A program made the translations under genes and the position numbers. 64,000 bases of DNA from an uncultured Candidatus Saccharibacteria bacterium. GTDB lineage: Bacteria; Patescibacteriota; Minisyncoccia; Phycocordibacterales; UBA1006. Below, in pieces: positions 1 through 59,637 of the stretch. The stretch spans positions 248,377-312,376 of the forward strand of contig CAYGJA010000001.1 in assembly GCA_964350165.1 (NCBI GenBank). The letters are read 5' to 3'. How positions within the stretch are numbered: the stretch's first letter is position 1; each line of letters starts with the position of its first letter. The notes under the pieces are model-generated. The model was given only the letters and a program-made list of their open reading frames with translations. It was not told the origin of the DNA and searched no databases.

Positions 1-204
1 CAGATTGCTGACATCCTGCGTACACACTCGCTGACAATTGCCACCACAGTCTATTCCCCGCTCCAAGCCGTTCTGTTTGCCGTCAAAACACGTCGCCGGC
101 CGGGTAAAGTACCGATACGCTGTAATACCAATCAGTATCGTCGGCAGAATAGACAGGATACCGATATAGGTGAGTTTTCGCCGTTGTGACCAGGATAATG
201 CCAT
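1..204 (-). CDS. Hypothetical membrane protein, N-terminal part (gene runs off left edge)
   Basis: ATG at 204-202 on minus strand. Open frame to position 1 translates MALSWSQRRKLTYIGILSILPTILIGITAYRYF with one hydrophobic helix. Below the 60-aa ORF-track cutoff, found by manual translation. Confidence 0.3.
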   Translation of the reverse strand, partial: MALSWSQRRKLTYIGILSILPTILIGITAYRYFTRPATCFDGKQNGLERGIDCGGNCQRVCTQDVSNL

Positions 205-236
205 GGGTATATCATACCAGGATTTGTGCAGTGGTT

Positions 237-773
237 TTAATCATCTTTTTCCAGACCATGTAACCAAGCCAATATTCTGGTTGCGGTATACATAACCAAT
301 CCAACAACCAACAGCATCGCTAGCATTAACCCCGTCGGCATACTCACCGCTGGCAACAATGCTGTCCCCAACAATGCACTCATCAAAAAAACTTGCACCA
401 AATAAGGCAATCGTTGCCACCACTGACCTCGCTCCTTTTTTCCCAAAAAAACAATTCCCTCAAAAACAATCCCCACCGCCAACAACCCACCCTGCAATAC
501 AGCCACTAATTGTGCCAGCGTATACGTTCCCTCCAAAACCAAAACCGGCCGCAACACTGCCAAAGGTCGCACAAATCCCAGTTCTTGCAAATTAATAATC
601 ACAAGAATTAACAGCACCAACGCAGCCCCCAATTGCAGTGAGCGTACCCACCCCAATAACGCTGACCACAGTATCCTCCCCAGCAACAGAACGATTTTGT
701 TCGGTTTTTCTTGAATAGGGCTGGTTTTCATAGGTATATGATACCAGGCTTCGCCCCCAAAAAATCGCAACAC
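237..773 (-). CDS. Hypothetical integral membrane protein (multi-TM)
   Basis: 178-aa ORF with 4-5 hydrophobic helices (LVLLILVIINL, LLAVGIVFEGIVFLG, LLGTALLPAV, LVVGLVMYTA). No recognisable family. Confidence 0.45.
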   Translation of the reverse strand: MLRFFGGEAWYHIPMKTSPIQEKPNKIVLLLGRILWSALLGWVRSLQLGAALVLLILVIINLQELGFVRPLAVLRPVLVLEGTYTLAQLVAVLQGGLLAVGIVFEGIVFLGKKERGQWWQRLPYLVQVFLMSALLGTALLPAVSMPTGLMLAMLLVVGLVMYTATRILAWLHGLEKDD

Positions 774-829
774 CTGTTCCCACTAGCGACTATCTCTAAT
801 ATTTACAAAAAGCTATACTATTCTTGTAA

Positions 830-1705
830 TTGTTAGCTTTAATATACATATCTATGGAAATAATCCCATTTAATAAACCAGAGGAATCACGGGACGAAGG
901 ATCATTACCCAGAAGATCATTTCTAAAAAAAGCAGGGGTGGGATTCGTCGGAATGCTTCTTGGAGGGAATGCACTAGCTGGAACAGAAGGAATAGAATCA
1001 GACTGGACCATGCAACTGTTGGAGGATGAGGCCTCCCGCATCGACGGGATAAACCTGTATGCCATAGCTCAAAGTCTAAACGGAGGAGGTGCACTAGCAA
1101 CCTTCCGAAAGGAGATTCTAGAACCACTCGTCGGATCGTCAAATATGGATACTTCAGAGATTCGAGCAGCCATAAAGCAACGAATACTTAAAACGACAGA
1201 CCCCGACCTACAAGAAATCAAAGAGGCCTTTAAAGCCAAACTCCAGGAAAAAGAAACCATAACAGCAGAACGAGCAACAGCAGCAGACAATAGAACGGAA
1301 GCAGAGAGAGAAAAAGAAGAGTTAAAAGAACAATTAGAAAACTCGACTTTGGATGAACTTCCAGACGCACAGTTCATAGAATTCATTCGTCAGAAATTAA
1401 TCGAGAAAAAGAAAATCAGCGATATCGATTTCGAAGCAGGGGATAAATTTGAGCGCACCTACACCCCCGATGAACAAAAAATTTTCAAAGGCGCTGTGCA
1501 CCAAAAAGCTAAATATATTTGGGGCATAGACGAAGCAAGAAGAATACTAGACAGCCTAGAAGGAAAAAGTAGCCCACGCACAAAGGGAGACAGAGAGCGT
1601 GATGGCGGCTGGACAGAGAACACACAAAAAAGAGGCGCTGGTTCTGCTTATGGAAGGACTTGCGGAGAAGCGCTTGGTAAACTATACGAACTACTGCAGT
1701 GGTAA
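830..1705 (+). CDS. Hypothetical exported protein with twin-arginine-like signal (SLPRRSFLKKAGVGFVGMLLG), highly charged coiled-coil region
   Basis: 291-aa ORF (likely start at M854). S-R-R-x-F-L-K motif followed by hydrophobic h-region and AxA-like site. E/K-rich central segment. Followed by a rho-independent terminator. Confidence 0.5.
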   Translation: MLALIYISMEIIPFNKPEESRDEGSLPRRSFLKKAGVGFVGMLLGGNALAGTEGIESDWTMQLLEDEASRIDGINLYAIAQSLNGGGALATFRKEILEPLVGSSNMDTSEIRAAIKQRILKTTDPDLQEIKEAFKAKLQEKETITAERATAADNRTEAEREKEELKEQLENSTLDELPDAQFIEFIRQKLIEKKKISDIDFEAGDKFERTYTPDEQKIFKGAVHQKAKYIWGIDEARRILDSLEGKSSPRTKGDRERDGGWTENTQKRGAGSAYGRTCGEALGKLYELLQW

Positions 1706-1725
1706 CCCCAGAAACAGTCTCAATA

Positions 1726-1760
1726 AACCCCAGCCTTCCAATGGCTGGGGTTTATTTTTG
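1726..1760 (+). terminator. Rho-independent terminator (AAACCCCAGCC..GGCTGGGGTTT + T-run)
   Basis: 10-bp GC-rich stem, 7-nt loop, followed by TTTATTTTTG. Located 21 nt after stop of 830..1705. Confidence 0.7.
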
Positions 1761-2006
1761 GGTGATTTTTGAAAATTGGGTAAAAAAAAGACGGTGTCAT
1801 ACAGAGTACAACAACCGCCCTGCTTTGAGGCCCCACCTCTCACCTTTTACCAAACCATCTATTGGTGAGGCCTCTCTTCACTACTTCAAAAATTGCCTGC
1901 GTATCTTTTTCAAATCTATCACACCAAATAGTAGTGTCAATGGCTTGACAAGTGCTATTAAATAATGGTATAATATAAAAAGAAAGTATCTGGTTCTTTG
2001 ACAAAT

Positions 2007-2083
2007 GGTTGGTGAAACGGTGAATCTAGAGCATTCCCAGGCGGCAAGCCTGATGAATTAGACTCACCGTTTTACCAACCAAA
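2007..2083 (+). promoter_or_regulatory. Long imperfect inverted repeat (18-bp arms, 41-nt loop with nested 5-bp hairpin) immediately upstream of GC-rich gene start
   Basis: TGGTTGGTGAAACGGTGA ... TCACCGTTTTACCAACCA, one G-U wobble. 3' arm ends 9 nt before ATG 2093. No T-run, so not a classic terminator. Confidence 0.4.
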
Positions 2084-2092
2084 TCATCAATT

Positions 2093-3097
2093 ATGAAAAA
2101 AAGTATTTTTATCATCGCCACCACCCTGCTCCTGACCTTTTCTGTCCAGGCTCAGGACACAACCTGGACCTCTGTTACAGAGGTCCAGGGGGTAACCCTG
2201 GCCTCCTGGGTCAACCCAGCGGGAGACTGGGTGACACAGGTCACCGCACCCCTCCCGACGGGAGCGGTCGCCCTCCGCTGGGCGCCCGCTGACTCCTCGG
2301 CTGGGCGAGCACTGGCGCCCACCCAACACTACGAAATCGTGTCCTTGGAGGCACACCTTCCCCTGCTGGGGTGGGTGATCCTCCAAACAACGGAGGACCT
2401 GGCGGACTCGACTGAGTCCGCTAGGTCGGAACAATATTTGACCCCCCTCCCCGAGGGGACGGACTTCGTCAGGTGGAGTCACGGATTCCCGGCGAACCCG
2501 GGGGCGGTGGAAGTGAACAGCCTCCACGTGGAGGCTAAATGGGGCCTGGACCCCACCGCCTTTCCGGTCGAGTGGCTCTATTTTGAGGCCAAGACGACCG
2601 CCGAAGGGGTTGCGCTCAACTGGGCCACGGCTCAGGAGCTGAACTCCGACCGGTTCGAGGTGGAGCGCAGCGCCGACGGTACGGAGTGGGCTAACATCGG
2701 CCAAGTGGCCGCAGCTGGCTGGGCTGACTCCAAATCGGAGTATCGGTTCACCGACACCACCGCCTCCGGCCGGATGTACTACCGCCTCCGTCAGGTAGAC
2801 TTTGACGGCGCCACCGACTACAGCAGTGTGGTCGAGGCGGTCGTCGAGGCCCCCACCTCAGCCGGGCCGACCCTTCGGGTCACGAGCTGCGCGGGCAACC
2901 CGCAGGTCCACGGACTCGAGGTGGGGGCCACTGGCATGCTTCAAGTCTATGACCTGAGAGGCCAGCTGGTCTACACCAGCCAGGTGTACGGCACTGGGCA
3001 GCCAGTTACGGTCGCCCTGCCAGACCTGCCCGCCGGCCTCTACACCGCCACCATCACTGACGGCCACGGCGGAATCGGCAAGGTGCTGATAAAGTAG
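2093..3097 (+). CDS. Secreted protein with Bacteroidota-type signal peptide and C-terminal T9SS sorting domain (Por_Secre_tail-like)
   Basis: N-term MKKSIFIIATTLLLTFSVQAQ. C-term ...LQVYDLRGQLVYTSQVYGTGQPVTVALPDLPAGLYTATITDGHGGIGKVLIK matches the T9SS CTD pattern. About 64% GC with GC3-rich codons, unlike flanking DNA. Confidence 0.7.
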   Translation: MKKSIFIIATTLLLTFSVQAQDTTWTSVTEVQGVTLASWVNPAGDWVTQVTAPLPTGAVALRWAPADSSAGRALAPTQHYEIVSLEAHLPLLGWVILQTTEDLADSTESARSEQYLTPLPEGTDFVRWSHGFPANPGAVEVNSLHVEAKWGLDPTAFPVEWLYFEAKTTAEGVALNWATAQELNSDRFEVERSADGTEWANIGQVAAAGWADSKSEYRFTDTTASGRMYYRLRQVDFDGATDYSSVVEAVVEAPTSAGPTLRVTSCAGNPQVHGLEVGATGMLQVYDLRGQLVYTSQVYGTGQPVTVALPDLPAGLYTATITDGHGGIGKVLIK

Positions 3098-3225
3098 GGG
3101 CAACCCCTCCCCGCGTCGCATGAAGCACGACGTGGGGATGAAACAAAATATTTGCTTCTTTGTATAAAAAGGTCCCGCTCTGGAATTTTCCAGGGTGGGC
3201 CTTCATTTTTGGGTAATTTTTATTT

Positions 3226-4353
3226 TTATAATTCTTCGGTAATCACCTCCGCCGCAGCGTTGGCCCAATCAATCCGCAGGAACGTCAGACCAATCACCCG
3301 CCCATCGTCCGTCACGGTACGGATGCGCCAAGCGTCGCCCGGCAAATTGCTTTTGTACGAATATCCGCGATACCCACGATCGGCACCGCCAACGATGGTC
3401 ATAGGAATGCGGTCGGTGGTCACCCACTTGCCTTCTTTTTTGTACTGCCATTCGTGATAGATCCGAGCGGTAAATTTGTCCGGGGCAAACACACTGGTAA
3501 AGACATACGCCCGATCACCCGGCACCAGGGTCAATGTGTTGCTACGCTTGTCCCAGAACCGCCAAGCAGGATTGGCCTCGTAGTCAGCCTGGTACCCATC
3601 CCCCGCCCGCACCACGCGGTGATACACGGCGTCTAATTTGATAGACAGCGGTACTGGCGGCAAGACCTTGGCAAAATATGATCCGGCGATTACCACCAAG
3701 ACAGCGCCAATAATCCAACCCTTGCCCATAATCAGGCGCCTTTTTTGAATCCGTCCCAATCTGGCCAGCAGTACCAAATATCCAAAAGCAAGCACTAGCC
3801 AAATCCCCGTTGCAAGCAGGAACAACCCAGTGCTCATATCATGGAAAATCAGCGGAATTAGGATGGCCAGATATAAATACAAAGCAGTAAACAAAGCCAC
3901 TAGCTGGATAGACAGGGCTTTGAAATATCGCTTGGCAAACTCGCTCCCGAACAGAAAGACCACCAGAATAAGCAGGAGCGGCCAACTGTTCAGCAGACTG
4001 CCACTGCGTCCATAGAAAATAACCAGCCCGCTATAGATGCCACCAATAGAAAAAGCCATGGCCGTATACAGCCAGTTGACCCAGCGATCAGGTATCCGCG
4101 AGCGCTCTCCCAGACGATACCAACGGAAAATAGCCGCCATGGATACCGACACAATCAGGAGATGCACCACCAGCAGAGCTTGATCAAAAATCTGATCAAT
4201 CCGATTGAGGGTCAGATTGTCCAACACAAATCCAATAATCAACGCCGCCGGAGCAATCAGCTGGTGGTGGCGGTTGGTAAAGTTGCGGAGGTTTTGCAAG
4301 CGTCGATGAAAGGCTTTCATGGCGTTAGTATAGCGCAAAGTAAAAGACCGCAC
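3226..4353 (-). CDS. DUF2914-family membrane protein (N-terminal multi-TM + C-terminal DUF2914 domain)
   Basis: 375 aa with about 8 TM helices. C-terminal YHEWQYKKEGKWVTTDRIPMTIVGGADRGYRGYSYKSNLPGDAWRIRTVTDDGRVIGLTFLRIDW is typical of DUF2914. Confidence 0.6.
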   Translation of the reverse strand: MRSFTLRYTNAMKAFHRRLQNLRNFTNRHHQLIAPAALIIGFVLDNLTLNRIDQIFDQALLVVHLLIVSVSMAAIFRWYRLGERSRIPDRWVNWLYTAMAFSIGGIYSGLVIFYGRSGSLLNSWPLLLILVVFLFGSEFAKRYFKALSIQLVALFTALYLYLAILIPLIFHDMSTGLFLLATGIWLVLAFGYLVLLARLGRIQKRRLIMGKGWIIGAVLVVIAGSYFAKVLPPVPLSIKLDAVYHRVVRAGDGYQADYEANPAWRFWDKRSNTLTLVPGDRAYVFTSVFAPDKFTARIYHEWQYKKEGKWVTTDRIPMTIVGGADRGYRGYSYKSNLPGDAWRIRTVTDDGRVIGLTFLRIDWANAAAEVITEEL

Positions 4354-4401
4354 CCGGGGAGGGTACGGTCTGCTTTGGCGGCTGTTAGACCGCCCCAGAA
4401 G

Positions 4402-4812
4402 CTAGGTTTTTCTTAGGAAGCCATTCACAATCGCCTGGCGAACCTGGTTGACATATGCAGCTTTGGCATAGTCGTCTAGGCCGTCATACCAGCAGGCGTC
4501 ACCCGGCCAATCGAGACCAACAACACCATAGGCGCTGGCCAACTGGGCGGCGGACCGCACCCGACCACGCTTGATAGGGTTCTCGGCAATCCAGATGGAC
4601 CGCGGATCGTCCCGCCCCCATTCATCACACAAGGCTTTCGCCCAGCGCCGTCGAGGGTCGTGGTGGGTAAAGGTGTCGAGCAAAATGGGCCCAGCAATGA
4701 AATGCCTTAGCACTTCTGGCACCCCAGGCGGTAACTCGGACCACTTGGATGGGATTACCTGAACAACACGATCAACAGCAGCTAGGGCACTGAGATCAAA
4801 AATGTTTTTCAT
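4402..4812 (-). CDS. Hypothetical protein (136 aa)
   Basis: Clean ORF, about 57% GC, no recognisable motif. Confidence 0.4.
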   Translation of the reverse strand: MKNIFDLSALAAVDRVVQVIPSKWSELPPGVPEVLRHFIAGPILLDTFTHHDPRRRWAKALCDEWGRDDPRSIWIAENPIKRGRVRSAAQLASAYGVVGLDWPGDACWYDGLDDYAKAAYVNQVRQAIVNGFLRKT

Positions 4813-4860
4813 AAGAAAACCTAATTTATTTAATTAGACCACACTTTCACTTTTTTGTAC

Positions 4861-4900
4861 ATAAAAACCCGGGTGCGCAAAGCGCACCCGGGTTTTTATT
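4861..4900. terminator. Bidirectional rho-independent terminator (AAAAACCCGGGTGCGC-AAA-GCGCACCCGGGTTTTT)
   Basis: Perfect 13-bp GC-rich stem flanked by A-run and T-run. On minus strand it follows the 5S rRNA, so it is the rRNA operon terminator. Confidence 0.8.
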
Positions 4901-4922
4901 ATTTTTTCTACAAAAAAAGCCC

Positions 4923-5030
<108 letters not shown>

Positions 5031-5096
5031 CAGATTACAAAGCTTTTTCGAGCTTGGAATATCAATATATTGTTTATGAGTTTCAAAAAACACCTA

Positions 5097-5111
5097 GTTT
5101 TCTCACAATGA
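5097..5111 (-). other. 3' half of 23S processing stem (TCATTGTGAGAAAAC), complementary to leader segment 8653-8667
   Basis: Leader (minus) GTTTTCTCACAATGA at 8653-8667 is an exact 15-nt complement of trailer TCATTGTGAGAAAAC at 5097-5111, bracketing the mature 23S like an RNase III processing stem. Confidence 0.6.
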
Positions 5112-5357
5112 GAAAGAAAATGCTTAATGGTGTATATGATGTCCAGAGTTCCTAACTGGACAATGGGCAATTAGTACTTCTCCGCTCAACACATTACTGT
5201 GCTTACACGTAAAGCCTATCAACCTGATCATCTCTCAGGGCCCTAGGATTACTAATCTTAAAGTTGGCTTCCCTCTTAGATGCCTTCAGAGGTTATCCAT
5301 TCCCGACATAGCTACCCGACGGTGCCGCTGGCGCGACAGCCGGTAGACCAGAGGTCA

Positions 5358-5390
<33 letters not shown>

Positions 5391-5440
5391 CTTTTCAATA
5401 ATCGACGCCTGCAGTAGATAGGAGACCAACCTGTCTTACG

Positions 5441-5756
5441 CATGTGTAGCAATTAGTTGTTTAAAACTAATCACACCGCCATTACTGGCGGGATCGGACT
5501 GTATCTTTATTCGCAAAATGCGAATAGTTAACGTGCAGTCTCTACGGGCTTATATTTCTATAATTCCCTCGGTATTGCCCGCACGAATGCTAGGGTTCTA
5601 CCGATATGAGTTAACTTTTTCTTTCTAGACGAATCTAGAAGACCGCCGTAATTGGTTGGTTCTATCATTTTTCATTTTTGTTAAGACGAAAAGACTATGT
5701 CGTTTTTTTAGGATTCAGATTGGTTCATACTCCAATTCGTAAAAATTAGAATATGA
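5441..5756 (-). other. 316-nt ORF-less insertion in 23S domain V with group-I-intron-like boundaries (U before 5' splice site, terminal G)
   Basis: Flanks GGGTTCAGACCGT | insertion | CGTAAGACAGGTTGG reconstitute the conserved GGGUUUAGAACGU-CGUGAGACAGUU block (E. coli about 2590s). No ORF of 60 aa or more inside. Confidence 0.6.
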
Positions 5757-6418
5757 ACGGTCTGAACCCAGCTCGCGTACCCTTTTAATTGGCGAACAGC
5801 CAAACCCTTGGGACCTTCTCCAGCCCCAGGATAGGATGAGCCGACATCGAGGTGCCGAACATCGCCGTCGCTGTGGACGCTCGGGCGATACTAGCCTGTT
5901 ATCCCCGGGGTAGCTTTTGTCCTATGATCTTCTGCCGCATCTAAAGCGGTCAGTCGGTTCACTATGCTCTGCTTTCGCACCTGTTCGTCATGTCCGACTC
6001 ACAGTCAAGCTGGTTTATGCCATTACACTATCGGCACGGTTTCCATTCGCGCCTAACCAACCTTAGTAGGATCCTCCGTTACTTTTTGGGAGGAGAGCGC
6101 CCCACTCAAACTACCCACCACACACTGTCCCTCCTGGTTTTTGCCCAAGGGGTTAGAACATACATAACATGAGGGTGGTATTTCACTGGCGACTCCAGTG
6201 CAGCCAAAACCGCACCTTCAAAGTCTCCCACCTATGCTGCGCACAGGTCACGTATGCTCAATGTGAAGCTATAGTAAAGCTCCCGGGGTCTTTTCGTCTA
6301 ACTGCAGGTAACCGGCATCTTTACCGGTATTGCATTTTCACCGAGCAGGTCCTCGAGACAGTTCCCCAGTCGTTACGCCATTCGTGCACGTCTGAACTTA
6401 CCAGACAAGGAATTTCGC

Positions 6419-6614
6419 TCATGTATTCCTTTTAAATGCTCGACATGGACTCTATCTTATCCCTCCTTTGCAGGTAGGGCCGTGACGTTGGTCTCTATAT
6501 CATCACGTTTGGACTATGCTTACATTACTGTAAGTAAGGTAACTTGCGTATTCTATTTATCTACTTCTATAACAGTCCCAGTCCTACTGATTTCTAGTTT
6601 GCACTAAAAATCAG
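6419..6614 (-). other. 196-nt ORF-less insertion in 23S domain IV between CCTAAGGT and AGCGAAATTCC (L1917-L1923 intron-site region)
   Basis: Conserved UAAGGUAGCGAAAUUCC block is interrupted. Insertion begins ACTGATTTTTAGTGCAAACTAGAAATCAG (hairpin) and ends ...AATACATG (G terminus). AT-rich, no ORF. Confidence 0.5.
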
Positions 6615-6650
<36 letters not shown>

Positions 6651-7462
6651 CAGGGCTTATACAGATCAGCAAAACAAATAAATTTATTTCACCCTCCAGT
6701 ATTTAACCTTCTGGCATTGGTCAGGCGTCACCCCCTATACATCCTCTTTCGAGTTCGCAGGGAGCTGTGTTTTTGATAAACAGTCGCCAGGGAATCTTTC
6801 GCTGCGGCCCACATTGCTGTGGGCAGGCCTTATCCCGAAGTTACGGCCGCTTTTTTGCCGAGTTCCTTGAGGACCTCTCACTCGTTCGCCTTGGTCTACT
6901 CGACCTGACTACCTGTGTCGGTTTACGGTACAGGTTCCATATGTTTAACCTTAGAAGTTTTTCTCGAAAGGCTCTTCACATACCTCTCCCGGTCCGAAGA
7001 CCGGAATTGCTTGTATCCTCTCTGTTTGCCCGAGGGCCACTACCCGGATTTACCTAAGTAGCACAGATCGAATCCACGACACCAATCCGATAAGATGCGT
7101 ATGCTTATTTCCTTTGTCACTCCATCGAAACATAGGGAAGTTACGGAATATTAACCGTATGTCCATCGCCTGCGGTTCTCACCATCGGCTTAGGCCCTGA
7201 CTAACCCACGGTCGATCAACGTTGCCGTGGAACCCTTAGTCTTTCGGCGGGAGGGGATCTCACCCTCCTTGCGGTTACTTGTGCCAACATTCTTACTTCT
7301 ACACGCTCCACTATGGCTCACGCCTTTAGCTTCATCGCAGAGTAGAATACTCTCCTACCACTCGTATACGAATATACGAATCCTCAACTTCGGTACAATA
7401 CTTAAGCCCCGATTATTTGCGGCGCAGAATCTCTAGACCAGTGAGCTGTTACGCTATCTTTA

Positions 7463-7493
<31 letters not shown>

Positions 7494-8062
7494 TTGTCGG
7501 AGAAATTCTACCTCCTTAAGTGCACTGAGTATTGTTTAGGGACCTTAGTTTGAGATCTGGGCTGTTTCCCTTTTGTCCACGTGACCTTCGCGCCCCGGGA
7601 CTGACTGCCACGCTATTAACCGACTGGTATTCGGAGTTTGGTAAGTTTGGCGAGCCGAAGCCCTACTCAAACTATCCAGTGCTCTACCCCCAGCGGGAAC
7701 ACGTGACGCTATACCTAAATATATTTCGGAGAGAACCAGCTATTACCAAGTTCGATTGGCTTTTCACCCCTTACCACAAGTCATCCCCGCGTTTTGCACG
7801 GCGCGTGGGTTCGGGCCTCCATCTGTGTTTCCACAAACTTCACCCTGCTCATGGCAAGCTCACTTGGTTTCGGGTCGTATGCATGCTACATATTCGCGCT
7901 ATTCACACTCGGTTTCCCTGGGGCTCCGTCCGAAAAGGACTTAGCCAAGCAACATACATACACTCGTTGGCTCATTCTTCAATAGGCACGCCGTAGAGGA
8001 TGCAAGCACCCTCATCGACTCCTTGTAGACACACGGTTTCAGTTCTATTTCACTCCCCTTCC

Positions 8063-8108
<46 letters not shown>

Positions 8109-8863
8109 TGATGAAATATTTAGCCTTACCAGTTAGTACTGGCAGATTCCTCCAAGCTATTCATGTCTCGGAGTACTCAGGAACAGTAGTCAAGAAGGCG
8201 TGAGATTTTCGATTACGGGACTTTCACCCCCTTTGGTTAGGCTTTCCAGCCGTATTCATCTAACCTCACACTTTGTAACTTCTCGGGTAAACCCTACTAC
8301 TGCCCTACAACCCCACATCTCTTTACCGAAGTAAACAGACATGGTTTGGGCTTCTTCCGTTTCGCTCGCCGCTACTCAGGAAATAACATTTGTTTTCTTT
8401 TCCTCTAGGTACTGAGATGTTTCACTTCCCTAGGTAAACTCTTTTGGTCTCTTATGTACCAAAAGTGACTGTGGTTTACACAGCCGGGTTGCCCCATTCG
8501 GAAATTTCCGGATCAAAGCTCGATTATCAGCTCCCCGAAACTTATCGCAGATAGTCCACGTCCTTCATCGCTTTCATCAGCCAAGGCATCCACCGTGCGC
8601 CCTTGGACTCCAATTAGGAGATCCAAACATCAAGTAACACCGCATTTTGTTTTCATTGTGAGAAAACTCGATGTTCTTTGAAAAGACTCACACTTGGCAC
8701 ATACATATATATGTATGTGCCAAATATATTGATATTCAGCTATCAAAGGTCTCGACCTGTTTGCATTAAAAAATCGCCACTTGAGGCGATGCGGAGAACA
8801 ACCAAGGTTGGTCACTGCATCACGTAAGTCTCAAAGTCGAATTGATACGCATAAGGTGGTTGG

Positions 8864-43765: not shown

Positions 43766-44824
43766 ATGCCTAAGAAAAAAACAACCACAAAAGAAAATCC
43801 AAAAGAGGATAATAATCTGCAAAACACCATCGACATGATCCAAACCAAATTCGGCGAAGGCGCCATCATGAAGCTTGGTGATTCACCAAAAGTAGACGTT
43901 GGGGTTATTCCCACCGGATCCTTGGGGCTGGATAATGCGCTCGGAATCGGTGGGCTGCCCCTTGGACGTGTCATCGAAATATATGGCCCTGAATCTTCAG
44001 GTAAAACAACCCTCACCCTTCACGTTATTGCCGAATCACAAAAACAAGGAGGTATTTGTGCCTTTATTGATGCCGAACATGCCCTAGATCCAGAATATGC
44101 AAAGAAACTTGGTGTTCAGACCAGCGACCTTCTTATTTCTCAGCCAGACACCGGAGAACAAGCGCTCGAAATTGTAGAAACTCTCGTTCGCTCAGGAAAA
44201 ATTGCTGTTATTGTTGTTGACTCCGTGGCCGCTCTGACCCCAAAAGACGAAATCGAGGGAGACATGGGTGCTCATCATGTCGGAAAACAAGCCCGCCTCA
44301 TGTCCCAAGCTTTGCGCAAATTGACCGCTATTACCGCCAAAAGCCATACTATGGTTATCTTTATCAACCAGATTCGTATGAAAATCGGGGTAATGTTCGG
44401 CTCTCCCGAAACAACCACTGGCGGAAAAGCCCTCAAGTTCTACAGCTCGGTTCGTATCGACATTCGTCGCATCGCCCAAATCAAAAAAGGCGAAGAAGTG
44501 GTAGGTTCGCGAACCAGAGTCAAGGTGGTCAAAAACAAAGTTGGGCCCCCTTTCCGAGTCAGCGAGTTCGACATCATCTACAACGAAGGTATTTCTCAGG
44601 AAGGAGAATTCTTGGCCCTAGGAGAAAAATACAAACTCATTAGTAAGTCGGGAGCCCACTTTAGCTATGACCCAGGAGAAGGCGCAAAGCTACCTGATTC
44701 GGTAAAACTTGGTCATGGTTACGACAATGCTCGCAAATTCTTGCGCGACAAAGAAAACAAAGCCATTCGCGCTCAATTATTGAAAGAAATTCAAGCAAAA
44801 ATGAAAGAAGAGAATGCTGCCTAA
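43766..44824 (+). CDS. recA: Recombinase RecA
   Basis: Walker [23 protein letters not shown]2 loop and overall collinearity with RecA. 352 aa. Confidence 0.95.
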
Positions 44825-54948: not shown

Positions 54949-57900
54949 CTACTGCAGGGTGACCGCGAACAAAGCTTCGTGAGCCACTACTTCAGCCTCG
55001 GCTTCTTTTGCCAAATCAGCAATTTCTAATCCATTAGCATTAACGGTATTTGTAATGTGCTCTTGGTAATTGGCCAACACTTCTTTTCCGGCATCATTAG
55101 TTGCAATTAGAATATTGACAGCATCGGCAGGTTCTAATCCGGCCGTCTTGCGCAGACCCTGGATATGTCGAATGAGCTCTCGTGCGCCCCCCTCCTGCTT
55201 GAGCTCTTTGGTTAAATTAGTGTCAAACCTACAAGGAGAGCCGTCTTGGTCACCTTGTTCGACAACAATTTCTTTGACGTTCAGCTCGTCTTTTAATAGA
55301 TACTCGCACTCCTGCCAATATTTTGGCACGACAGAAGATTTTATAAAGAATGACTGTAGAGGTTGTCGGACGTTAATTTGTTCTTGTTTGCGGATATTGA
55401 GACCCATCGTCACAAAATTTCGAATCTGGAGCATTGTGCTCAATAATTCAGAGTCTACCGGCTTGTTCGAGTCGGGCCAGGTGCACAGGTGCACGCTTTC
55501 GATATCTTGTTGTTTTCTAAGAGCTTGCCAAATTTCCTCAGCTACAAAAGGCACAAATGGAGCCAATATCTTGGAAGATTCGAGTAATACGTGTCGAAGT
55601 GCTCCTCGAGCCATCGCCGCGTCTTTACTTTCTCCATCTTTAAAACGATCCCGACTACGTCGCACATACCAAGTAGACAAATCGTCCACAAAAGCAAAGA
55701 TAGCGCGCGCGCTCTGATCCAAAGCATAACCATCCAAACTCGCAGTTACTTCATTTGAAAAATCTGCCAAACGAGCGCTCATCCAATGATCCAGAATATC
55801 TTCACTGTTGTTGATGTCGACATGCTCTCCCTGACTATAGAGCTGATAAAAAGAAAGCACGTTGCGCAATCGTCGCATTACTTTGTTTCCAGCGTCCTGT
55901 ACGCCTTTTTCGGTAAAACTACTGCTCTCTCCTCGAACCACGGGCAGGGACACCATAAACAACCGAAAAGCATCAGCGCCATACGCATCAAACACCTCTC
56001 GCGGATCAGGATAATTTTTGAGGCTCTTGGACATCTTTCGTCCGTCTTCGGCCAACACGAGACCGTTCACCACCACTTGCTGGAAAGCAGGCTTGTCAAA
56101 CAATGCGGTAGCCAATACCATCAACACATAAAACCACCCCCTGGTCTGGTCCAACCCTTCGGCAATAAAGCTCGCCGGAAAACGAGATTCTTCAAATAAT
56201 TGTTCGTTTTCGAATGGATAATGCAGTTGTGCATAGGGCATCGAACCAGAATCAAACCAAACATCAAAGACGTCTTCGATGCGCTGATATTCATTCCCTT
56301 CTGCGTCTTTCAGGACAACTTCGTCGATATACGGACGGTGCAAATCCAAATCATAATTATTGTTATGAGGAATGGGAACAAAAGGCAATGGTCTAAGTTC
56401 AGCATTTTTAAACGGAACAAAATCCGCTACAAAAGCCATATCATTGGTGTCTTTTTTGTATTCTTGGTTTTTGGGCAAATGCTCCATCGCCAGGACATTG
56501 AGCAACCAACATACACCACCATGTGTCACAATGACTATTTTTTTATCGGTATGAGTTTTTTCTATTTCATAAAGAAAATCTCCTAGCCTGTTTTTGACGT
56601 CTTGATAGGATTCTCCTCCCGGAACCGGCGTAGCAAACCAATCTTTCTTTGATTGGCTGGCAATATAATCATGATAATCAGACCACGCTCCCCCTTCGAA
56701 TTCTCCGGGCTCTTGCTCACGCAAACGCTCATCCACAATGATGGACTCCTTTGCTAGCCTCAGTTCAGTGGCCAAGACTTCGGCGGTTCCTCGTGTTCGC
56801 AACAATGGAGAAGTAATAATCAAATCAATATCCTGATCCTTGAGGTCATGCGCGGTCACGACTGTCTGTTCCTTGCCCAAATCAGTAATAGGATGAATGG
56901 TGTTGTCATAAGCACTAATCACACCCAAAGCATTTGATTCGGCTTCACCGTGACGCATTACATAGTAGGTATTCTTGGCAGACGGAACGTGTTGTTTTAG
57001 CTCGGCTATCGAACCAATCACGATTTGTTTGCCTGTTTCTTTGTTTTCCCACACCGGCAATGGTGTTCCCCAAAAACGACTACGAGATACTGCCCATTCG
57101 CGAGCACCCTCTAGCCAATTGCCAAATCTCCCGTCTCGCAAATGCTCTGGCACCCAATTTGTTTTGGCATTGTTGGCTAACAAGCGGTCTTTGATAGCGG
57201 GCACATCAACGAACCAAGACTTGGTTGCATAATTAAGGAGCGGTGTGTCACAACGCCAACACAATGGATAGCTGTGTACGTATTTGTATTTTGAAAATAA
57301 TTTTTCGTTATGGGCAAGCCATTTGACGATTTCGATATCGGTCGACATGGTGTCTCCTTTTTTCTTTACCAACAGACCAGCAAAGTCTGTTACTGGTTTC
57401 AAGAATTTTCCACCAATATCTACGTGTTGAATAAAAGGTAGCTGGTATTGCTTGCCAAGCTCCATATCATCGGAACCAAAAGCCGGCGCTATATGCACAA
57501 TACCAGTTCCTTCTTCGGTAGTAACAAAATCAGCAGCGTAGACCTTCCAGCCATTCTCTCGGTTCTCTAGTGTTTCGTCATTGGTGTAATAATCAAAAAC
57601 AGGCACATAAGATTTGCCCACTAATTCCTTGCCAGAAATTTCTGATTCAACCTGGTGTTCTTTGTCTTTGAACACTTCCCCAGCCAAATCCTTGGCGACA
57701 ATATAGCTATGGTCTTCAAATGAAATTTTGACATAGGAAATTTCTTCCCCAACCGCCAGCGCCACGTTTCCTGGCAATGTCCAGGGCGTGGTAGTCCAGG
57801 CGAGCAAATAAGTCCCCGGCTCGTCTACCAGTTCGAATTTTGCAGTGACCGTAATATCGGTAACATCTGCATAGCCCAAATTAACCTCAAAGTTCGCCAG

Positions 57901-58476
57901 TGGCGTCTCGCAACGGGGACAAATATGCATTGGCTTAAAGCCCTGATTTACTAGCCCCTTGTCGTGCAATTGCCGGAACACCCACCAAACCGATTCCATA
58001 TAACTAGCCTGCATGGTCATATACGGATCCTGCATATCTACCCAACGCCCGGTACGCGGGACCAACCCCTCCCAATCGGCCGCATAGCGCAAAACACTGG
58101 CCCGAGCAGCGTCATTAAATTTGTCGATACCGTATGCCTCGATGTCTTTTTTTGATTTCAGATCAAGTTCTTTTTCTATCAAATTCTCGATTGGCAATCC
58201 ATGACAATCCCAACCCCAGCGGCGCGGCACACGATAGCCCTGCATGGTTTTGTAGCGTGGAATAATGTCCTTGATCGTACCAGCCAAAAGGTTACCCAGA
58301 TGAGCAGTACCGGTACCATAAGGAGGGCCATCATAAAACACAAATTCTCCCTGGGGTGCTTCTTTTTCTAGGCTTTTTTCAAAGATTTTTTGTTCTTGCC
58401 AAAAACGTAGGATTTGCTCTTCGCTTTCCGCCACATCGCTTTTTTCTATTTTTTTGGGAGTTTTAGCATCGCTCAT
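54949..58476 (-). CDS. ileS: Isoleucine--tRNA ligase (eukaryote-like type) carrying an in-frame histidine-phosphatase (PGAM-family) domain insertion
   Basis: HIGH-region PPYGTGTAHLGNLLAGTIKDI, CP1 editing domain, KMSKS (DGRKMSKSLKNYPDP), anticodon-binding domain. About 190-aa inserted domain YYVMRHGEAESN...ITSPLLRTRGTAEVL...VIVTHGGV between WGTPLPVW and DLHRPYIDE. ORF track starts at GTG 58494; ATG 58476 (MSDAKTPKK) preferred. Confidence 0.9.
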   Translation of the reverse strand: MSDAKTPKKIEKSDVAESEEQILRFWQEQKIFEKSLEKEAPQGEFVFYDGPPYGTGTAHLGNLLAGTIKDIIPRYKTMQGYRVPRRWGWDCHGLPIENLIEKELDLKSKKDIEAYGIDKFNDAARASVLRYAADWEGLVPRTGRWVDMQDPYMTMQASYMESVWWVFRQLHDKGLVNQGFKPMHICPRCETPLANFEVNLGYADVTDITVTAKFELVDEPGTYLLAWTTTPWTLPGNVALAVGEEISYVKISFEDHSYIVAKDLAGEVFKDKEHQVESEISGKELVGKSYVPVFDYYTNDETLENRENGWKVYAADFVTTEEGTGIVHIAPAFGSDDMELGKQYQLPFIQHVDIGGKFLKPVTDFAGLLVKKKGDTMSTDIEIVKWLAHNEKLFSKYKYVHSYPLCWRCDTPLLNYATKSWFVDVPAIKDRLLANNAKTNWVPEHLRDGRFGNWLEGAREWAVSRSRFWGTPLPVWENKETGKQIVIGSIAELKQHVPSAKNTYYVMRHGEAESNALGVISAYDNTIHPITDLGKEQTVVTAHDLKDQDIDLIITSPLLRTRGTAEVLATELRLAKESIIVDERLREQEPGEFEGGAWSDYHDYIASQSKKDWFATPVPGGESYQDVKNRLGDFLYEIEKTHTDKKIVIVTHGGVCWLLNVLAMEHLPKNQEYKKDTNDMAFVADFVPFKNAELRPLPFVPIPHNNNYDLDLHRPYIDEVVLKDAEGNEYQRIEDVFDVWFDSGSMPYAQLHYPFENEQLFEESRFPASFIAEGLDQTRGWFYVLMVLATALFDKPAFQQVVVNGLVLAEDGRKMSKSLKNYPDPREVFDAYGADAFRLFMVSLPVVRGESSSFTEKGVQDAGNKVMRRLRNVLSFYQLYSQGEHVDINNSEDILDHWMSARLADFSNEVTASLDGYALDQSARAIFAFVDDLSTWYVRRSRDRFKDGESKDAAMARGALRHVLLESSKILAPFVPFVAEEIWQALRKQQDIESVHLCTWPDSNKPVDSELLSTMLQIRNFVTMGLNIRKQEQINVRQPLQSFFIKSSVVPKYWQECEYLLKDELNVKEIVVEQGDQDGSPCRFDTNLTKELKQEGGARELIRHIQGLRKTAGLEPADAVNILIATNDAGKEVLANYQEHITNTVNANGLEIADLAKEAEAEVVAHEALFAVTLQ
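56395..56970 (-). other. Histidine phosphatase (phosphoglycerate-mutase-like, branch 1) domain embedded in IleRS (about aa 509-700)
   Basis: RHG motif (VMRHGEAESN), conserved Arg (LLRTRGTAE), glutamate (EQEPGEFEGG), distal His (VIVTHGGV). Flanked both sides by conserved IleRS catalytic-core sequence. Confidence 0.75.
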
Positions 58477-58484
58477 ATTGCCCC

Positions 58485-58495
58485 ATATTAGCACA
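58485..58495 (-). promoter_or_regulatory. Extended -10 promoter element (TGTGCTAATAT) 8 nt upstream of ileS ATG; near-leaderless transcript predicted
   Basis: Minus strand TGTGCTAATAT-ggggcaat-ATG. TGnTAATAT fits extended -10. No SD sequence. No T-box leader. Confidence 0.35.
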
Positions 58496-58938: not shown

Positions 58939-59637
58939 CTAGAACACATTGTCATGGTCTTCTTGACCAATCAAAGCATAGCTGATGAGCTCACCGTCTC
59001 CGGCCAGCTTGTAGGGCAGCTGTCCGTGTGTAAAAGCCACGATTTCATTAGTGCTGACATCGTGCCACTTCTTCTCGATATCATTCATCAATGTAATTTG
59101 TTCACTCGACAAATGGGCAGACTGATACAGATTTCCAGGACGCGTCGCACGGAGTAGATATACCGGCCCCTTGTCGGTGGTCTTGTGCTCGACCTCAATC
59201 AGGCCTTTTTCTTCCAACTCGTCTATCATCCGAAAATACGTGTCCGGTACGGGGCCAAATTGGATTTTGCGGTAGCCAAGCCCACTCATGCTGTCCATAT
59301 GTTCATAAAACCAAGCAAAATCAGCCAAATATAAAAGTTTGGCCAACTTTGTTTTTGGCACCTTGCCGTCGCCCGCTCCGCGGGCGACGGCCTGCAACAT
59401 TGCAATAATCATATCGCGGTAGACGTCTAATCGCGGCGCAATTCCCGCCACCAATTCTTCGACGGTTACGCCCAATACTCGCGCCAGCCGTTCGGCCTCC
59501 TGAATCGAAACATCGCGCGCGCCTTTTTCGATCGCAATATACGACGGACGCGAAAGTCCGACCGCCTCCGCCATCGAGACCTGTGTCAGCTTTTTTTCTT
59601 TTCGCAGCGTCAACACTGCATCACCTAATGTAGCCAT
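58939..59637 (-). CDS. HTH-XRE + Panacea (DUF4065/SocA-like) domain protein, putative antitoxin
   Basis: N-term LRKEKKLTQVSMAEAVGLSRPSYIAIEKGARDVSIQEAERLARVLGVTVEEL (Cro/C1 HTH). C-term KLAKLLYLADFAWFYEHMDSMSGLGYRKIQFGPVPDTYFRMIDELEEKGLIE matches the Panacea core. Confidence 0.6.
   Translation of the reverse strand: MATLGDAVLTLRKEKKLTQVSMAEAVGLSRPSYIAIEKGARDVSIQEAERLARVLGVTVEELVAGIAPRLDVYRDMIIAMLQAVARGAGDGKVPKTKLAKLLYLADFAWFYEHMDSMSGLGYRKIQFGPVPDTYFRMIDELEEKGLIEVEHKTTDKGPVYLLRATRPGNLYQSAHLSSEQITLMNDIEKKWHDVSTNEIVAFTHGQLPYKLAGDGELISYALIGQEDHDNVF

Follow-up and report, generated by a model that had tools for sequence, protein, structure and literature searches.

A GC-rich gene encoding a 334-residue protein with a type IX secretion system (T9SS) sorting domain was probably acquired horizontally from a GC-rich Bacteroidota-like donor, and is a real part of a CPR/Patescibacteria chromosome. 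We put the probability of this reading at roughly 0.75. The gene, hereafter the target, was examined in a window of 64 kb, the whole stretch of DNA analyzed here (64,000 nucleotides); the features discussed below are collected in Table 1. An initial annotation had offered two origins for the target, a transfer from a high-GC Bacteroidota donor and a chimeric assembly. The transfer is supported by the homologues of the protein, by the CPR identity of the host, and by the empty site in a sister lineage.

Table 1. Features of the target gene, its product and the surrounding DNA, numbered from the first nucleotide of the window.
Feature	Position	Strand	Remarks
Sigma-70-type promoter-like site	1945..1974	+	TTGACA-18 nt-TATAAT, TG ahead of -10; 12/12
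Left copy of 22-nt imperfect direct repeat	1979..2000	.	AAAGAAAGTATCTGGTTCTTTG; 82% to right copy
Near-perfect hairpin in predicted 5' leader, 76 nt	2006..2081	+	
Target coding sequence, 334 aa	2093..3097	+	ATG 2093, TAG 3097; GC 0.642, GC3 0.788
Signal peptide, residues 1-21	2093..2155	+	MKKSIFIIATTLLLTFSVQAQ; assigned by inspection of the sequence; modelled with a helix at 3-15
Orphan N-terminal region, residues 22-150	2156..2542	+	GC3 0.77
FnIII/Ig-like beta-sandwich, residues ~151-252	2543..2848	+	pLDDT ~95; PVEW..LNWATAQELNSDRFEVERSADG..YYRLRQVDFDG..YS
T9SS type A C-terminal sorting domain, residues ~258-334	2864..3094	+	HMM match 278-329 (2924-3079)
GC-rich hairpin directly 3' of the stop codon, without a U-tract	3108..3138	+	Ends the GC-rich segment
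Right copy of 22-nt imperfect direct repeat	3141..3162	.	AAACAAAATATTTGCTTCTTTG
Host-type intrinsic terminator	3169..3221	+	Stem 3174-3199 and T-run
DUF2914 membrane protein gene	3226..4320	-	GC 0.52; 92% nucleotide identity in sister lineage
Strain-specific ORF, 136 aa	4402..4812	-	GC 0.56; not shared with sister lineage
5S rRNA	4927-5034	-	Borders the variable locus
23S rRNA	5151-8616	-	Borders the variable locus

The composition of the target sets it apart from its surroundings. The 52 other open reading frames (ORFs) in the window have a mean GC of 0.441 (sd 0.041, maximum 0.560) and a mean GC3 of 0.426 (sd 0.076), which places the target at z ~5 for each quantity and bears out its initial description as a 64%-GC, GC3-rich gene. 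GC at the three codon positions is 0.636/0.501/0.788. The peak at the third position confirms the reading frame, and the N- and C-terminal sequences first attributed to the protein are present in this ORF. The other two positions are also shifted, as most host genes have a GC1 of ~0.5-0.56 and a GC2 of 0.33-0.40, both below those of the target. Measured over 200-nt segments, GC is 0.63-0.68 within the target and 0.35-0.48 in the flanks; it rises at ~2110, within the signal-peptide codons, and falls at ~3138. The earlier label of an AT-rich genome is somewhat overstated for a window with 44.5% GC. The whole ORF, its orphan N-terminal part included, is donor-like in composition.

The host was placed using RecA. 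Its closest named matches, at 77-78% identity, are from Ca. Pacebacteria and Nomurabacteria. Named sequences are few among the 120 matches listed, and the CPR assignment rests on them. Judged from sequence, the host is a member of CPR/Patescibacteria and not of the Bacteroidota. No T9SS machinery family was matched when the 53 other window ORFs that reach 150 aa were scanned with Pfam, a set that left out five ORFs overlapping others in antisense or in an alternative frame, as well as an ORF antisense to the 23S rRNA gene. This result agrees with the earlier statement that no T9SS components are present in the window, and with the earlier view that a cargo protein with a C-terminal sorting domain (CTD) but no machinery would be an orphan. 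The absence is observed within the 64 kb; for the rest of the genome, it rests on the known biology of the phylum.

A further reading is that the whole contig belongs to a Bacteroidota/FCB organism with a T9SS, and that the target is a native cargo of odd composition; the initial annotation had named such a contig as grounds against its own claim. We regard this reading as extremely improbable. Bacteroidota proteins typically have a signal peptide and domain layout of this kind, but the best named RecA relatives are CPR, the scanned ORFs match no machinery family, and the target is a 5-sigma compositional outlier in the window. The rRNA genes argue in the same direction: the 23S rRNA gene carries insertions and has no adjoining 16S rRNA gene, and neither a 16S rRNA gene nor a tRNA gene occurs in the 64-kb window. 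The 23S match spans 3466 nt against a model of 2925 positions, which leaves ~540 extra nucleotides. CPR genomes often have insertions in their rRNA genes, and the 16S rRNA gene is often unlinked from 23S-5S. The insertions and the absent 16S and tRNA genes fit CPR, though they are not exclusive to it.

The junctions between the target and its flanks are reproducible across assemblies. Logan contig L001 equals window positions 1-5008 at 99.98% and encodes a protein (P0001) identical to the target, and Logan contig L005 equals positions 1-2288. The same junctions occur in the NCBI contig and in the Logan per-run assemblies of ERR3534981 and ERR3535002. Over 5 kb, the sole difference between two assemblies is a nonsynonymous change in the target, at position 2285 (Pro65Thr). 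The NCBI contig that contains the window is 377,332 bp long and carries genes from either flank of the rRNA. An assembly or binning chimera, in which a GC-rich Bacteroidota fragment was misjoined to a CPR contig, could explain why the compositional steps are abrupt, why an rRNA operon, a classic site of misassembly, lies nearby, and why the Logan contigs end within the 5S rRNA gene. The contigs break in 5S, however, because two co-occurring strains have near-identical rRNA. A sister contig (L012) covers window positions 4893-5813 at 97.5% and continues through 5S into 23S, so that the sister lineage repeats the linkage of the DUF2914 gene, 5S and 23S. The upstream GC step is located within an uninterrupted ORF, where the signal peptide gives way to the mature part, and a related protein (P0002, described below) repeats this layout elsewhere, at a CPR locus unrelated to the present one. 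Together with the agreement of the two Logan runs, these observations refute the chimera proposed initially, which we consider very improbable.

The target occupies a strain-variable locus beside the 5S-23S rRNA genes. The sister lineage, with a RecA 96% identical, shares the DUF2914 gene, the terminator segment and 5S/23S. The target gene is absent at its syntenic site, where other genes are found instead, and the position of the strain-specific 136-aa ORF is taken by unrelated genes of 227 aa and 76 aa. We considered whether the variable locus derives from a phage or mobile element, and set this aside after PHROGs gave no match for nine proteins. No integrase, transposase or phage families were found among the neighbors of the target. 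The module described in the next paragraph is present on six IMG/VR contigs at 34-42% identity; these copies are no closer than the chromosomal Bacteroidota matches, and thus identify no vector.

The C-terminal half of the protein is the module usual in Bacteroidota cargo, in which a type A sorting domain follows an FnIII-like sandwich. The FnIII-like part matches tandem FnIII domains in Foldseek and is kept across 90 homologues, with every near-invariant residue retained in the target. The signal peptide contains no cysteine and is therefore of type I rather than that of a lipoprotein. The region between the signal peptide and the module is an orphan. A HMMER search of 1.84 billion cluster representatives returned the protein itself and, beyond that, only short matches to large multi-stretch proteins, and AlphaFold models the region with pLDDT <50. 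With neither relatives nor a confident model, no inference about the function of this N-terminal half is possible.

The C-terminal domain is real, although it passes the cutoff of one T9SS profile narrowly and falls short of that of another. It scores 25.0 bits against TIGR04183 (cutoff 23), where Bacteroidota relatives score 30-37 bits. The family profile matches solved T9SS CTDs, namely 8glj_D (4e-8), 8glk_D, 8qb1_A and 5hfs_A, with gingipain R2 among the matches. The model is a beta-sandwich with strands spanning residues 261-333 (pLDDT 80-93), and Foldseek matches it to the RgpB IgSF+CTD structure 5ag8_A, a match that is generic among Ig-like folds. The domain lies at the extreme C-terminus (278-329 of 334) of a protein that, from a reading of its sequence, begins with a Sec signal peptide. 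Residues G290, G315 and Y317 and the terminal KVLIK are retained. At the entry to the domain, the first proline of the PNP motif, 94% conserved in the 90 homologues, is replaced by Ser265, with N269-P270 remaining. The initial annotation called this domain unmistakable, and that wording is too strong: against PF18962, the score is 21.1 bits, below the cutoff of 27, and the match covers only model positions 24-72 of 75.

The distribution of homologues points to the Bacteroidota as the source. Nearly all of the 216 homologues found carry PF18962, and those with names are from Hymenobacter, Pontibacter, Flavobacteriales and Lewinellaceae. A scan of GTDB species representatives, among which the host genome is not included, placed homologues in Bacteroidota or Rhodothermales only. 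Matches in Bacteroidota such as Hymenobacter had been anticipated, and the homologues are T9SS type A proteins of Bacteroidota/Rhodothermales, save one that is CPR-borne. The Bacteroidota relatives are 30-50% identical to the target, in the C-terminal half (~151-334) only. Across Bacteroidota, the GC of the module tracks genome GC (0.43-0.73). The top genomic match is a 63%-GC Bacteroidia MAG whose GC3 over the homologous segment, 0.788, equals that of the target. No near-identical donor was found among 5.8 billion proteins, in which the best Bacteroidota matches are ~40-50% identical over half of the protein; the best non-self match, at 54%, is itself CPR-borne. The acquisition had been described as recent. 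This part of the claim draws on composition and on the empty site in the sister lineage, set against a closest relative at 54% (CPR) or ~50% (Bacteroidota).

The CPR-borne relative, P0002, is a 270-aa protein encoded on Logan contigs L002-L004 from the same sample series. It is 54% identical to the target over residues 151-334, its gene has a GC of 0.633, and its neighbor gene is CPR-like. In a tree of 90 sequences, the two proteins form a two-tip clade; we read the direction and timing of transfer from composition and distribution, rather than from a rooted phylogeny with node support. The pair shares six derived residues, AT-rich upstream DNA and the start context TCAATTATGAAAAA. In P0002, a small leader hairpin is seen by eye (the consensus scan flagged it on the minus strand only), as is a 3' terminator-like hairpin with a T-run, which the consensus scan did not call. 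A candidate promoter, TTGACT...TATTAAT, is visible by eye, whereas the consensus scan returned none, and we do not claim it. P0002 differs from the target in its shorter, unrelated N-terminal region and in its locus, which adjoins genes for CAP-domain and Ig-like/PG-binding proteins. Its CTD is also more degenerate, with a TIGR04183 score of 21.0 bits, below the cutoff, and no Pfam match. The entry proline is serine, as in the target, and the PNP motif has lost both N and P.

The target and P0002 agree in the third base at 25 of 44 fourfold sites, where 37% agreement is expected. Their divergence corresponds to approximately one synonymous substitution per site, yet GC3 is undecayed, which indicates that most of this divergence arose in a GC-rich background. 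That a second CPR contig carries a gene with this GC anomaly implies that such genes were captured more than once, from related donors, and recurrent capture would point to a lasting ecological association with GC-rich Bacteroidota. A single older acquisition is an alternative account of the paired CPR copies, under which their retained GC would be unexplained.

A family that has long resided in the CPR clade, or that passed from CPR to Bacteroidota, with constraint holding its GC high, would be consistent with two diverged copies forming their own clade in two CPR contexts, and with the start context that both share in AT-rich upstream DNA. This scenario is improbable. Bacteroidota proteins with the module number in the hundreds and join it to many different N-terminal domains, versus two CPR copies. 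Because the GC of the module follows that of the genome in Bacteroidota, the domain itself does not require high GC. The shifts in GC1 and GC2 indicate a GC-rich proteome of origin, and the syntenic site of the sister lineage lacks the gene. Moreover, we know of no mechanism that would maintain a GC3 of 0.79 where the genes of the genome are at 0.43.

The DNA flanking the target was searched for signals of insertion and expression. In the promoter scan of 1600-3400, two sites were found where 0.9 is expected from shuffles, and the promoter-like site in Table 1 is defined by its consensus match only. The hairpin that follows it has arms at 2006-2028 and 2059-2081, each 23 nt long and 91% complementary, and the leader (1981-2110) folds at -48.7 kcal/mol (z = -7.7). 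This is the inverted repeat that the initial annotation had given 18-bp arms and suggested as an insertion boundary. The repeat is real and its arms are longer than claimed, but the boundary role is not demonstrated. Its location between the consensus promoter and the ATG makes it look more like a leader RNA hairpin. A better candidate for the boundary is the 22-nt direct repeat that brackets the hairpin and the gene, in which 18 of 22 positions agree; none of 300 shuffles of both intergenic zones reached this value (maximum 17), and the repeat may be an insertion scar.

Several other identities for the hairpin were considered and rejected. It does not behave as a dispersed or mobile element: the arm has no second copy in the window, and in one metagenome scan its matches were two contigs sharing 13-nt arms only, with differing interiors and no BLAST similarity, one of them 66% GC. 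Neither the hairpin nor the 3' region corresponds to a known RNA family; at E <= 1, Rfam gave only sub-threshold noise, for instance an L20 leader scoring 23.7 bits (cutoff 58.7) and miRNA precursors. An integron cassette with an attC site is likewise disfavored. The hairpin lies 5' of the ORF, its ends (TGGTTGG...CCAACCA) do not fit the RYYYAAC/GTTRRRY core sites by eye, and the neighbors of the target include no integrase families.

These features allow us to propose how the gene arrived and how it may be used. The imported segment would extend from ~2087 to ~3138, and may have entered together with the leader hairpin, between the direct repeats. Transcription would start from the predicted promoter, proceed through the hairpin leader and end at the host terminator, which lies in a 53-nt segment that is 91% shared with the sister lineage lacking the target. 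The protein is probably exported by Sec via its type I signal peptide. T9SS moves cargo across the outer membrane in the Bacteroidetes/FCB group (PMC8754138, PMC12398890), and Patescibacteria have been proposed to have no outer membrane (PMC12102498). Given this proposed absence, and with no T9SS gene seen, the sorting domain could not serve as a secretion signal and would persist as a plain beta-sandwich. The product would end beyond the cytoplasmic membrane, and most likely be a binding protein that is either held at the surface or released.

It is possible, though unlikely, that the gene was acquired as described but is a neutral passenger, unused because it is unexpressed or useless without a T9SS, and will decay. 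The CTD scores of the two CPR copies are below those of the Bacteroidota relatives, the entry proline is serine in both copies, the single inter-assembly difference in 5 kb is nonsynonymous and in the target, and the locus turns over rapidly between sister lineages. Both copies are nevertheless uninterrupted ORFs that retain a signal peptide, conservation of the FnIII-like module is complete, and the target is preceded by a promoter matching the consensus at 12/12 and followed by a proper terminator. Two separately kept copies in streamlined genomes also suggest some use.

Compared with known T9SS type A cargo, the target has the expected plan of a Sec signal peptide, a variable N-terminus, an FnIII/Ig-like spacer and a terminal beta-sandwich of ~75 residues. 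Over ~151-334, it is 35-50% identical to cargo of the Hymenobacter/Pontibacter type, and its CTD keeps the same glycines, tyrosine and C-terminal lysine. Unlike such cargo, it belongs to a CPR genome in which no T9SS gene is seen in the window, and to a phylum that is described in the literature as having no outer membrane; its CTD entry is degenerate at Ser265, its Pfam score is below the cutoff, and its N-terminal domain has no relatives. A literature search found nothing relevant on T9SS or CTD proteins in CPR.

Transfer from Bacteroidota to Patescibacteria is already documented, Bacteroidota being among the more frequent non-CPR donors (PMC12455944), and the target adds a case. As in that study, one foreign gene is found in a streamlined CPR genome, its donor phylum is inferred to be Bacteroidota, and the donor itself has not been recovered, which the study notes can occur. 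The transfers in that study are mostly "not recent", whereas the target is far less ameliorated, lying ~20 GC points above its host. The target differs further in being a secretion-system substrate whose recipient probably lacks the machinery, and in having a related copy on another CPR contig.

One speculative extension, which we consider improbable, is that this CPR clade repeatedly captures genes for surface or secreted T9SS cargo from a GC-rich Bacteroidota partner and uses them, each with its own strong promoter. The product could be a host-mimicking adhesin, or the sorting domain could engage the T9SS/A-LPS attachment machinery of the partner at cell-cell contact. If this were true, the target would mark an otherwise unknown episymbiosis between Paceibacteria and Bacteroidota and would also be part of its working.

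The target, a genuine gene, would probably be flagged as foreign by automated contamination filters. It also offers what is probably a clean natural case of a secretion signal left without the machinery that matches it, and the slightly degenerate CTD motifs of the two CPR copies could reveal positions that are held only by T9SS recognition. To our knowledge, hosts have been identified for very few environmental CPR/Patescibacteria, and genes of recent transfer provide one of the rare genomic hints of their partners. The barely ameliorated target, together with the second copy, points to GC-rich Bacteroidota as a recurrent source of DNA for this lineage.

The open reading frame (ORF) reported in the initial annotation was recovered exactly: it runs on the forward strand from an ATG at 2093 to a TAG ending at 3097 and encodes 334 aa, with matching N- and C-terminal sequences. 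Its GC content is 0.642, with values of 0.636, 0.501, and 0.788 at the three codon positions. The third-position (GC3) peak identifies 2093-3097 as the coding frame and a 205-aa antisense ORF at 2087-2704 as spurious, of a kind typical of GC-rich DNA. The other 52 ORFs of the window have a mean GC of 0.441 (sd 0.041, maximum 0.560) and a mean GC3 of 0.426 (sd 0.076), placing the target ~5 standard deviations away in both. In 200-nt windows, GC is 0.63-0.68 across the gene and 0.35-0.48 on both flanks, stepping up at ~2110, within the signal-peptide codons, and down at ~3138, directly past a GC-rich hairpin 3' of the stop codon. The gene is compositionally foreign, and the GC contrast first noted holds; calling the genome AT-rich mildly overstates it, the whole window being 44.5% GC.

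A chimeric assembly had been proposed as one explanation of this contrast. Contig L001 (5714 bp), a per-run Logan assembly from ERR3534981, matches window positions 1-5008 at 99.98% identity and reaches 706 nt further left. Contig L005 (ERR3535002), identical to L001, spans window positions 1-2288, crossing the left junction into the target. The GC step itself lies within an intact ORF, where the signal peptide gives way to the mature protein. The Logan contigs end inside the 5S gene because a co-occurring sister lineage in the same sample series, with a RecA of 96% identity, has near-identical rRNA. Contig L012, from that lineage, joins its DUF2914 gene across 5S to 780 nt of 23S (97.5% identity to window 4893-5813), so an independent lineage and assembly preserves the link between this neighborhood and the rRNA genes. 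Exact-sequence look-ups place genes from both sides of the rRNA together on a 377,332-bp NCBI contig. The agreement of independent assemblies, the step within an intact ORF, and the explained 5S break lead us to reject a chimera; these data show that the gene is no artefact and is part of a CPR chromosome. Over the 5008 nt, the window differs from L001 at a single site, 2285 in the target gene, where C versus A in the first base of codon 65 exchanges Pro for Thr within the orphan N-terminal domain.

The host is a CPR bacterium, not a member of the Bacteroidota. The best named relatives of its RecA (43766-44824) belong to Candidatus Pacebacteria and Nomurabacteria, at 77-78% identity. The window also holds housekeeping genes for FtsK, EF-P, SSB, S6, L10, L7/L12, and several aminoacyl-tRNA synthetases, and a long glycosyltransferase/methyltransferase cluster. 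The rRNA genes occupy 4927-8616 on the reverse strand, 23S being followed by 5S. The 23S gene measures 3466 nt against a 2925-position model, ~540 nt extra; neither a 16S gene nor a tRNA was found across the 64-kb window, and on the rRNA strand the part of 23S covered by 5151-8000 is free of ORFs of 60 aa or more. An enlarged 23S, an unlinked 16S, and missing nearby tRNA genes are common traits of CPR genomes. In agreement with the initial annotation, families of type IX secretion system (T9SS) machinery gave no match among the 53 other window ORFs of at least 150 aa scanned, a set that excludes five ORFs overlapping others in antisense or in an alternative frame, and one lying antisense to 23S. 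Bacteroidetes/FCB bacteria use T9SS to carry cargo through their outer membrane (PMC8754138, PMC12398890), and the proposal for Patescibacteria is that they have no such membrane (PMC12102498). Together with the RecA relatives and rRNA traits, these observations identify the host as CPR. The alternative that the contig belongs to a Bacteroidota genome, raised at the outset, is rejected given the CPR-like RecA and the lack of a T9SS machinery match in the window.

An isoleucyl-tRNA-synthetase-like ORF (54949-58494, reverse strand, 1181 aa) carries a histidine phosphatase domain, PF00300 His_Phos_1, at residues 511-670 (E = 2.2e-31), an unusual insertion that splits the class I synthetase core into two stretches. 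The L7/L12 ORF (14383-14922, reverse strand) encodes 179 aa from the listed ATG; as its Pfam domains do not begin until residue 64, either the protein is extended N-terminally by ~60 residues or translation really starts further downstream. The ORF at 58939-59637 (reverse strand; HTH_3 plus a SocA/Panacea antitoxin-type domain) is, with GC 0.51, among the more GC-rich genes of the window.

Residues 1-21 of the target read as a putative type I signal peptide, with two Lys, a hydrophobic core, VQA-Q, and no Cys. For residues 22-150, AlphaFold gives no usable model (pLDDT <50), and the sole HMMER hits among 1.84 billion cluster representatives were the protein itself and short matches to large multi-stretch proteins. 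Residues ~156-252 form an FnIII/Ig-type beta-sandwich in a very confident model (pLDDT ~95), followed by a second beta-sandwich at residues ~258-334 (pLDDT 80-93). This C-terminal domain (CTD) scores 25.0 bits against TIGR04183, the T9SS type A sorting domain (cutoff 23), and 21.1 bits against PF18962, below the cutoff of 27. By sequence, the family profile matches solved T9SS CTDs, each at the extreme C-terminus: 8glj_D, a [quoted passage not shown] (4e-8), 8glk_D (endonuclease I CTD), 8qb1_A (mirolase CTD), and gingipain R2 CTDs. The later CTD landmarks G290, G315, Y317, and the C-terminal Lys are kept; the first Pro of the (F/Y)PNP entry motif, 94% conserved across 90 homologues, is Ser265 in the target. 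The TIGR04183 and solved-CTD matches thus uphold the presence of a sorting domain, whereas the PF18962 miss and Ser265 do not allow it to be called unmistakable. The domain appears real yet somewhat degenerate.

Among 5.8 billion proteins, 216 relatives were found at E <= 1e-3. The best, apart from the identical Logan copy, is P0002, a 270-aa protein on another CPR contig, with 54% identity over residues 151-334. The remainder match only the C-terminal half at 30-50% identity, and nearly all have PF18962. Those with names come from Hymenobacter, Pontibacter, Flavobacteriales, Lewinellaceae, and "Bacteroidota bacterium", and bear the annotation of T9SS type A sorting domain proteins. Across 185,579 species-representative genomes that were scanned, only Bacteroidota and Rhodothermales contained relatives. 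Both searches bear out the predicted Hymenobacter/Rhodothermus-like relatives and show that the target's homologues are Bacteroidota T9SS cargo. In these genomes, module GC tracks genome GC over a range of 0.43-0.73; high GC is therefore not something that the domain itself requires. The best genome match is a 63%-GC Bacteroidia MAG, whose homologous segment has a GC3 of 0.788, equal to the target. The FnIII-like plus CTD module also occurs on six IMG/VR contigs classed as viral (L021-L026), at 34-42% identity to the target.

Logan contigs L002-L004, from the same sample series as the target, carry P0002. Its neighbors encode a CAP-domain membrane protein, whose named relatives are likewise from Pacebacteria and Nomurabacteria, and an Ig-like/PG-binding protein. 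Its GC is 63.3%, versus 51-52% for the neighbors and 41-48% for intergenic DNA. Its layout is comparable to the target's: the DNA upstream is AT-rich, the leader has a small hairpin, and the TCAATTATGAAAAA start context is shared; a terminator-like hairpin and T-run downstream were seen by eye only, and a consensus scan there called neither a promoter nor a downstream terminator. Among 90 module sequences, the two proteins are reciprocal nearest neighbors in a two-tip clade, sharing six derived residues (W161, S185, W199, A207, A224, and S265). Of 44 fourfold sites at which both proteins have the same residue, 25 share the third base (37% expected from composition), a divergence that we roughly estimate at one synonymous substitution per site. 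Had it built up in genomes whose genes have a GC3 of ~0.43, GC3 would have dropped well below the observed 0.77-0.82, which suggests that most of this divergence arose in a GC-rich background. The two copies may have entered CPR separately from related donors, or one may have come very recently from the other's source. Against TIGR04183, the Bacteroidota relatives score 30-37 bits, the target 25.0, and P0002 21.0; the lower scores are compatible with relaxed constraint on T9SS recognition and could alternatively be a donor-lineage trait.

The anatomy of the target locus is summarized in the table.

Features flanking the target gene (window coordinates)
Feature	Position	Remark
Sigma-70 promoter, perfect consensus, extended -10 (TTGACA-18-TATAAT, TG)	1945-1974	Consensus match
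22-nt direct repeat, left copy	1979-2000	
76-nt leader hairpin	2006-2081	Single copy in window; matches no Rfam family
Target ATG	2093	11 nt past leader hairpin
GC-rich hairpin without U-tract	3108-3138	Ends GC-rich segment
22-nt direct repeat, right copy	3141-3162	
Host-type terminator	3174-3199	Within DNA common to sister lineage

The inverted repeat noted 5' of the gene is real and longer than described, with 23-nt arms (2006-2028/2059-2081) that are 91% complementary. The leader at 1981-2110 folds at -48.7 kcal/mol (z -7.7), and none of 200 shuffles was as stable. A 76-nt hairpin with identical 13-nt arm ends (GGTGAAACGGTGA...TCACCGTTTCACC) occurs at 1357-1432 of L019 (JGI Ga0210044_10055545, 39% GC), likewise a few nt 5' of an ATG (193-aa ORF); the contigs are otherwise dissimilar, and the likeness is probably a coincidence. 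The direct repeat, which flanks the leader hairpin, gene, and 3' hairpin together, matches at 18 of 22 positions; when the two intergenic zones were shuffled 300 times, no shuffle gave 18 matches. It looks like an insertion scar; no recombinase was found near the target. The terminators at 1722-1770 (of a 283-aa gene) and 3174-3221 (of the target) have a common tail, ATTTTTGGGTRATTTTT, identical at 26 of 35 positions, which may be a lineage-typical terminator or a bidirectional signal.

Comparison of window 3169-5008 with contigs L012-L015 of the sister lineage shows a strain-variable mosaic in the few kb beside 5S, with the target among its variable parts. The 5S-proximal DNA, the DUF2914 gene (92% nucleotide identity), and a 53-nt segment with the intrinsic terminator (window 3169-3221; 91%) are common to both. 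In the sister lineage, an extra 132-aa gene separates the terminator segment from the DUF2914 gene, and 227-aa and 76-aa genes stand in place of the window's 136-aa ORF (GC 0.56). Past the terminator segment, this lineage carries a different signal-peptide gene, transcribed away from the locus; the product begins MMYFLKITLGLLILLCGGEVVAQ..., and GC is 0.54 over the first 51 codons. No target copy was found at this syntenic site. The empty site, the foreign composition, and the Bacteroidota T9SS cargo homologues support the horizontal transfer first suggested.

Our analysis suggests the following course. The gene probably came from a donor that was GC-rich and Bacteroidota-like; CPR cells presumably take up foreign DNA, with Bacteroidota among the more frequent non-CPR donors (PMC12455944). 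Transcription would proceed from the consensus promoter through the leader, whose hairpin may modulate expression, and the protein would be exported by Sec. The sorting domain would be unusable because the recipient presumably lacks both an outer membrane and T9SS. The protein groups by sequence with Bacteroidota type A CTD cargo and would work alike; membership in the functional class of T9SS substrates would not hold in this host. The product would be an extracytoplasmic protein whose sole recognizable parts are two Ig-like sandwiches, most plausibly serving in binding or adhesion, with the orphan N-terminal domain as the specific part. The main alternative on function, that the gene is a neutral passenger, seems to us unlikely; that host T9SS cargo is captured deliberately and repeatedly and put to use where symbiont and host meet is more doubtful still. 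Horizontal transfer from Bacteroidota to Patescibacteria is already documented (PMC12455944). Specific to this case are the near absence of amelioration, a secretion signal without its machinery, and a second related copy on another CPR contig; we found no literature report of T9SS-type CTD proteins in CPR. The gene is unsurprising in kind, yet it offers a usable starting point for tracing the ecological partner of an uncultured CPR lineage.
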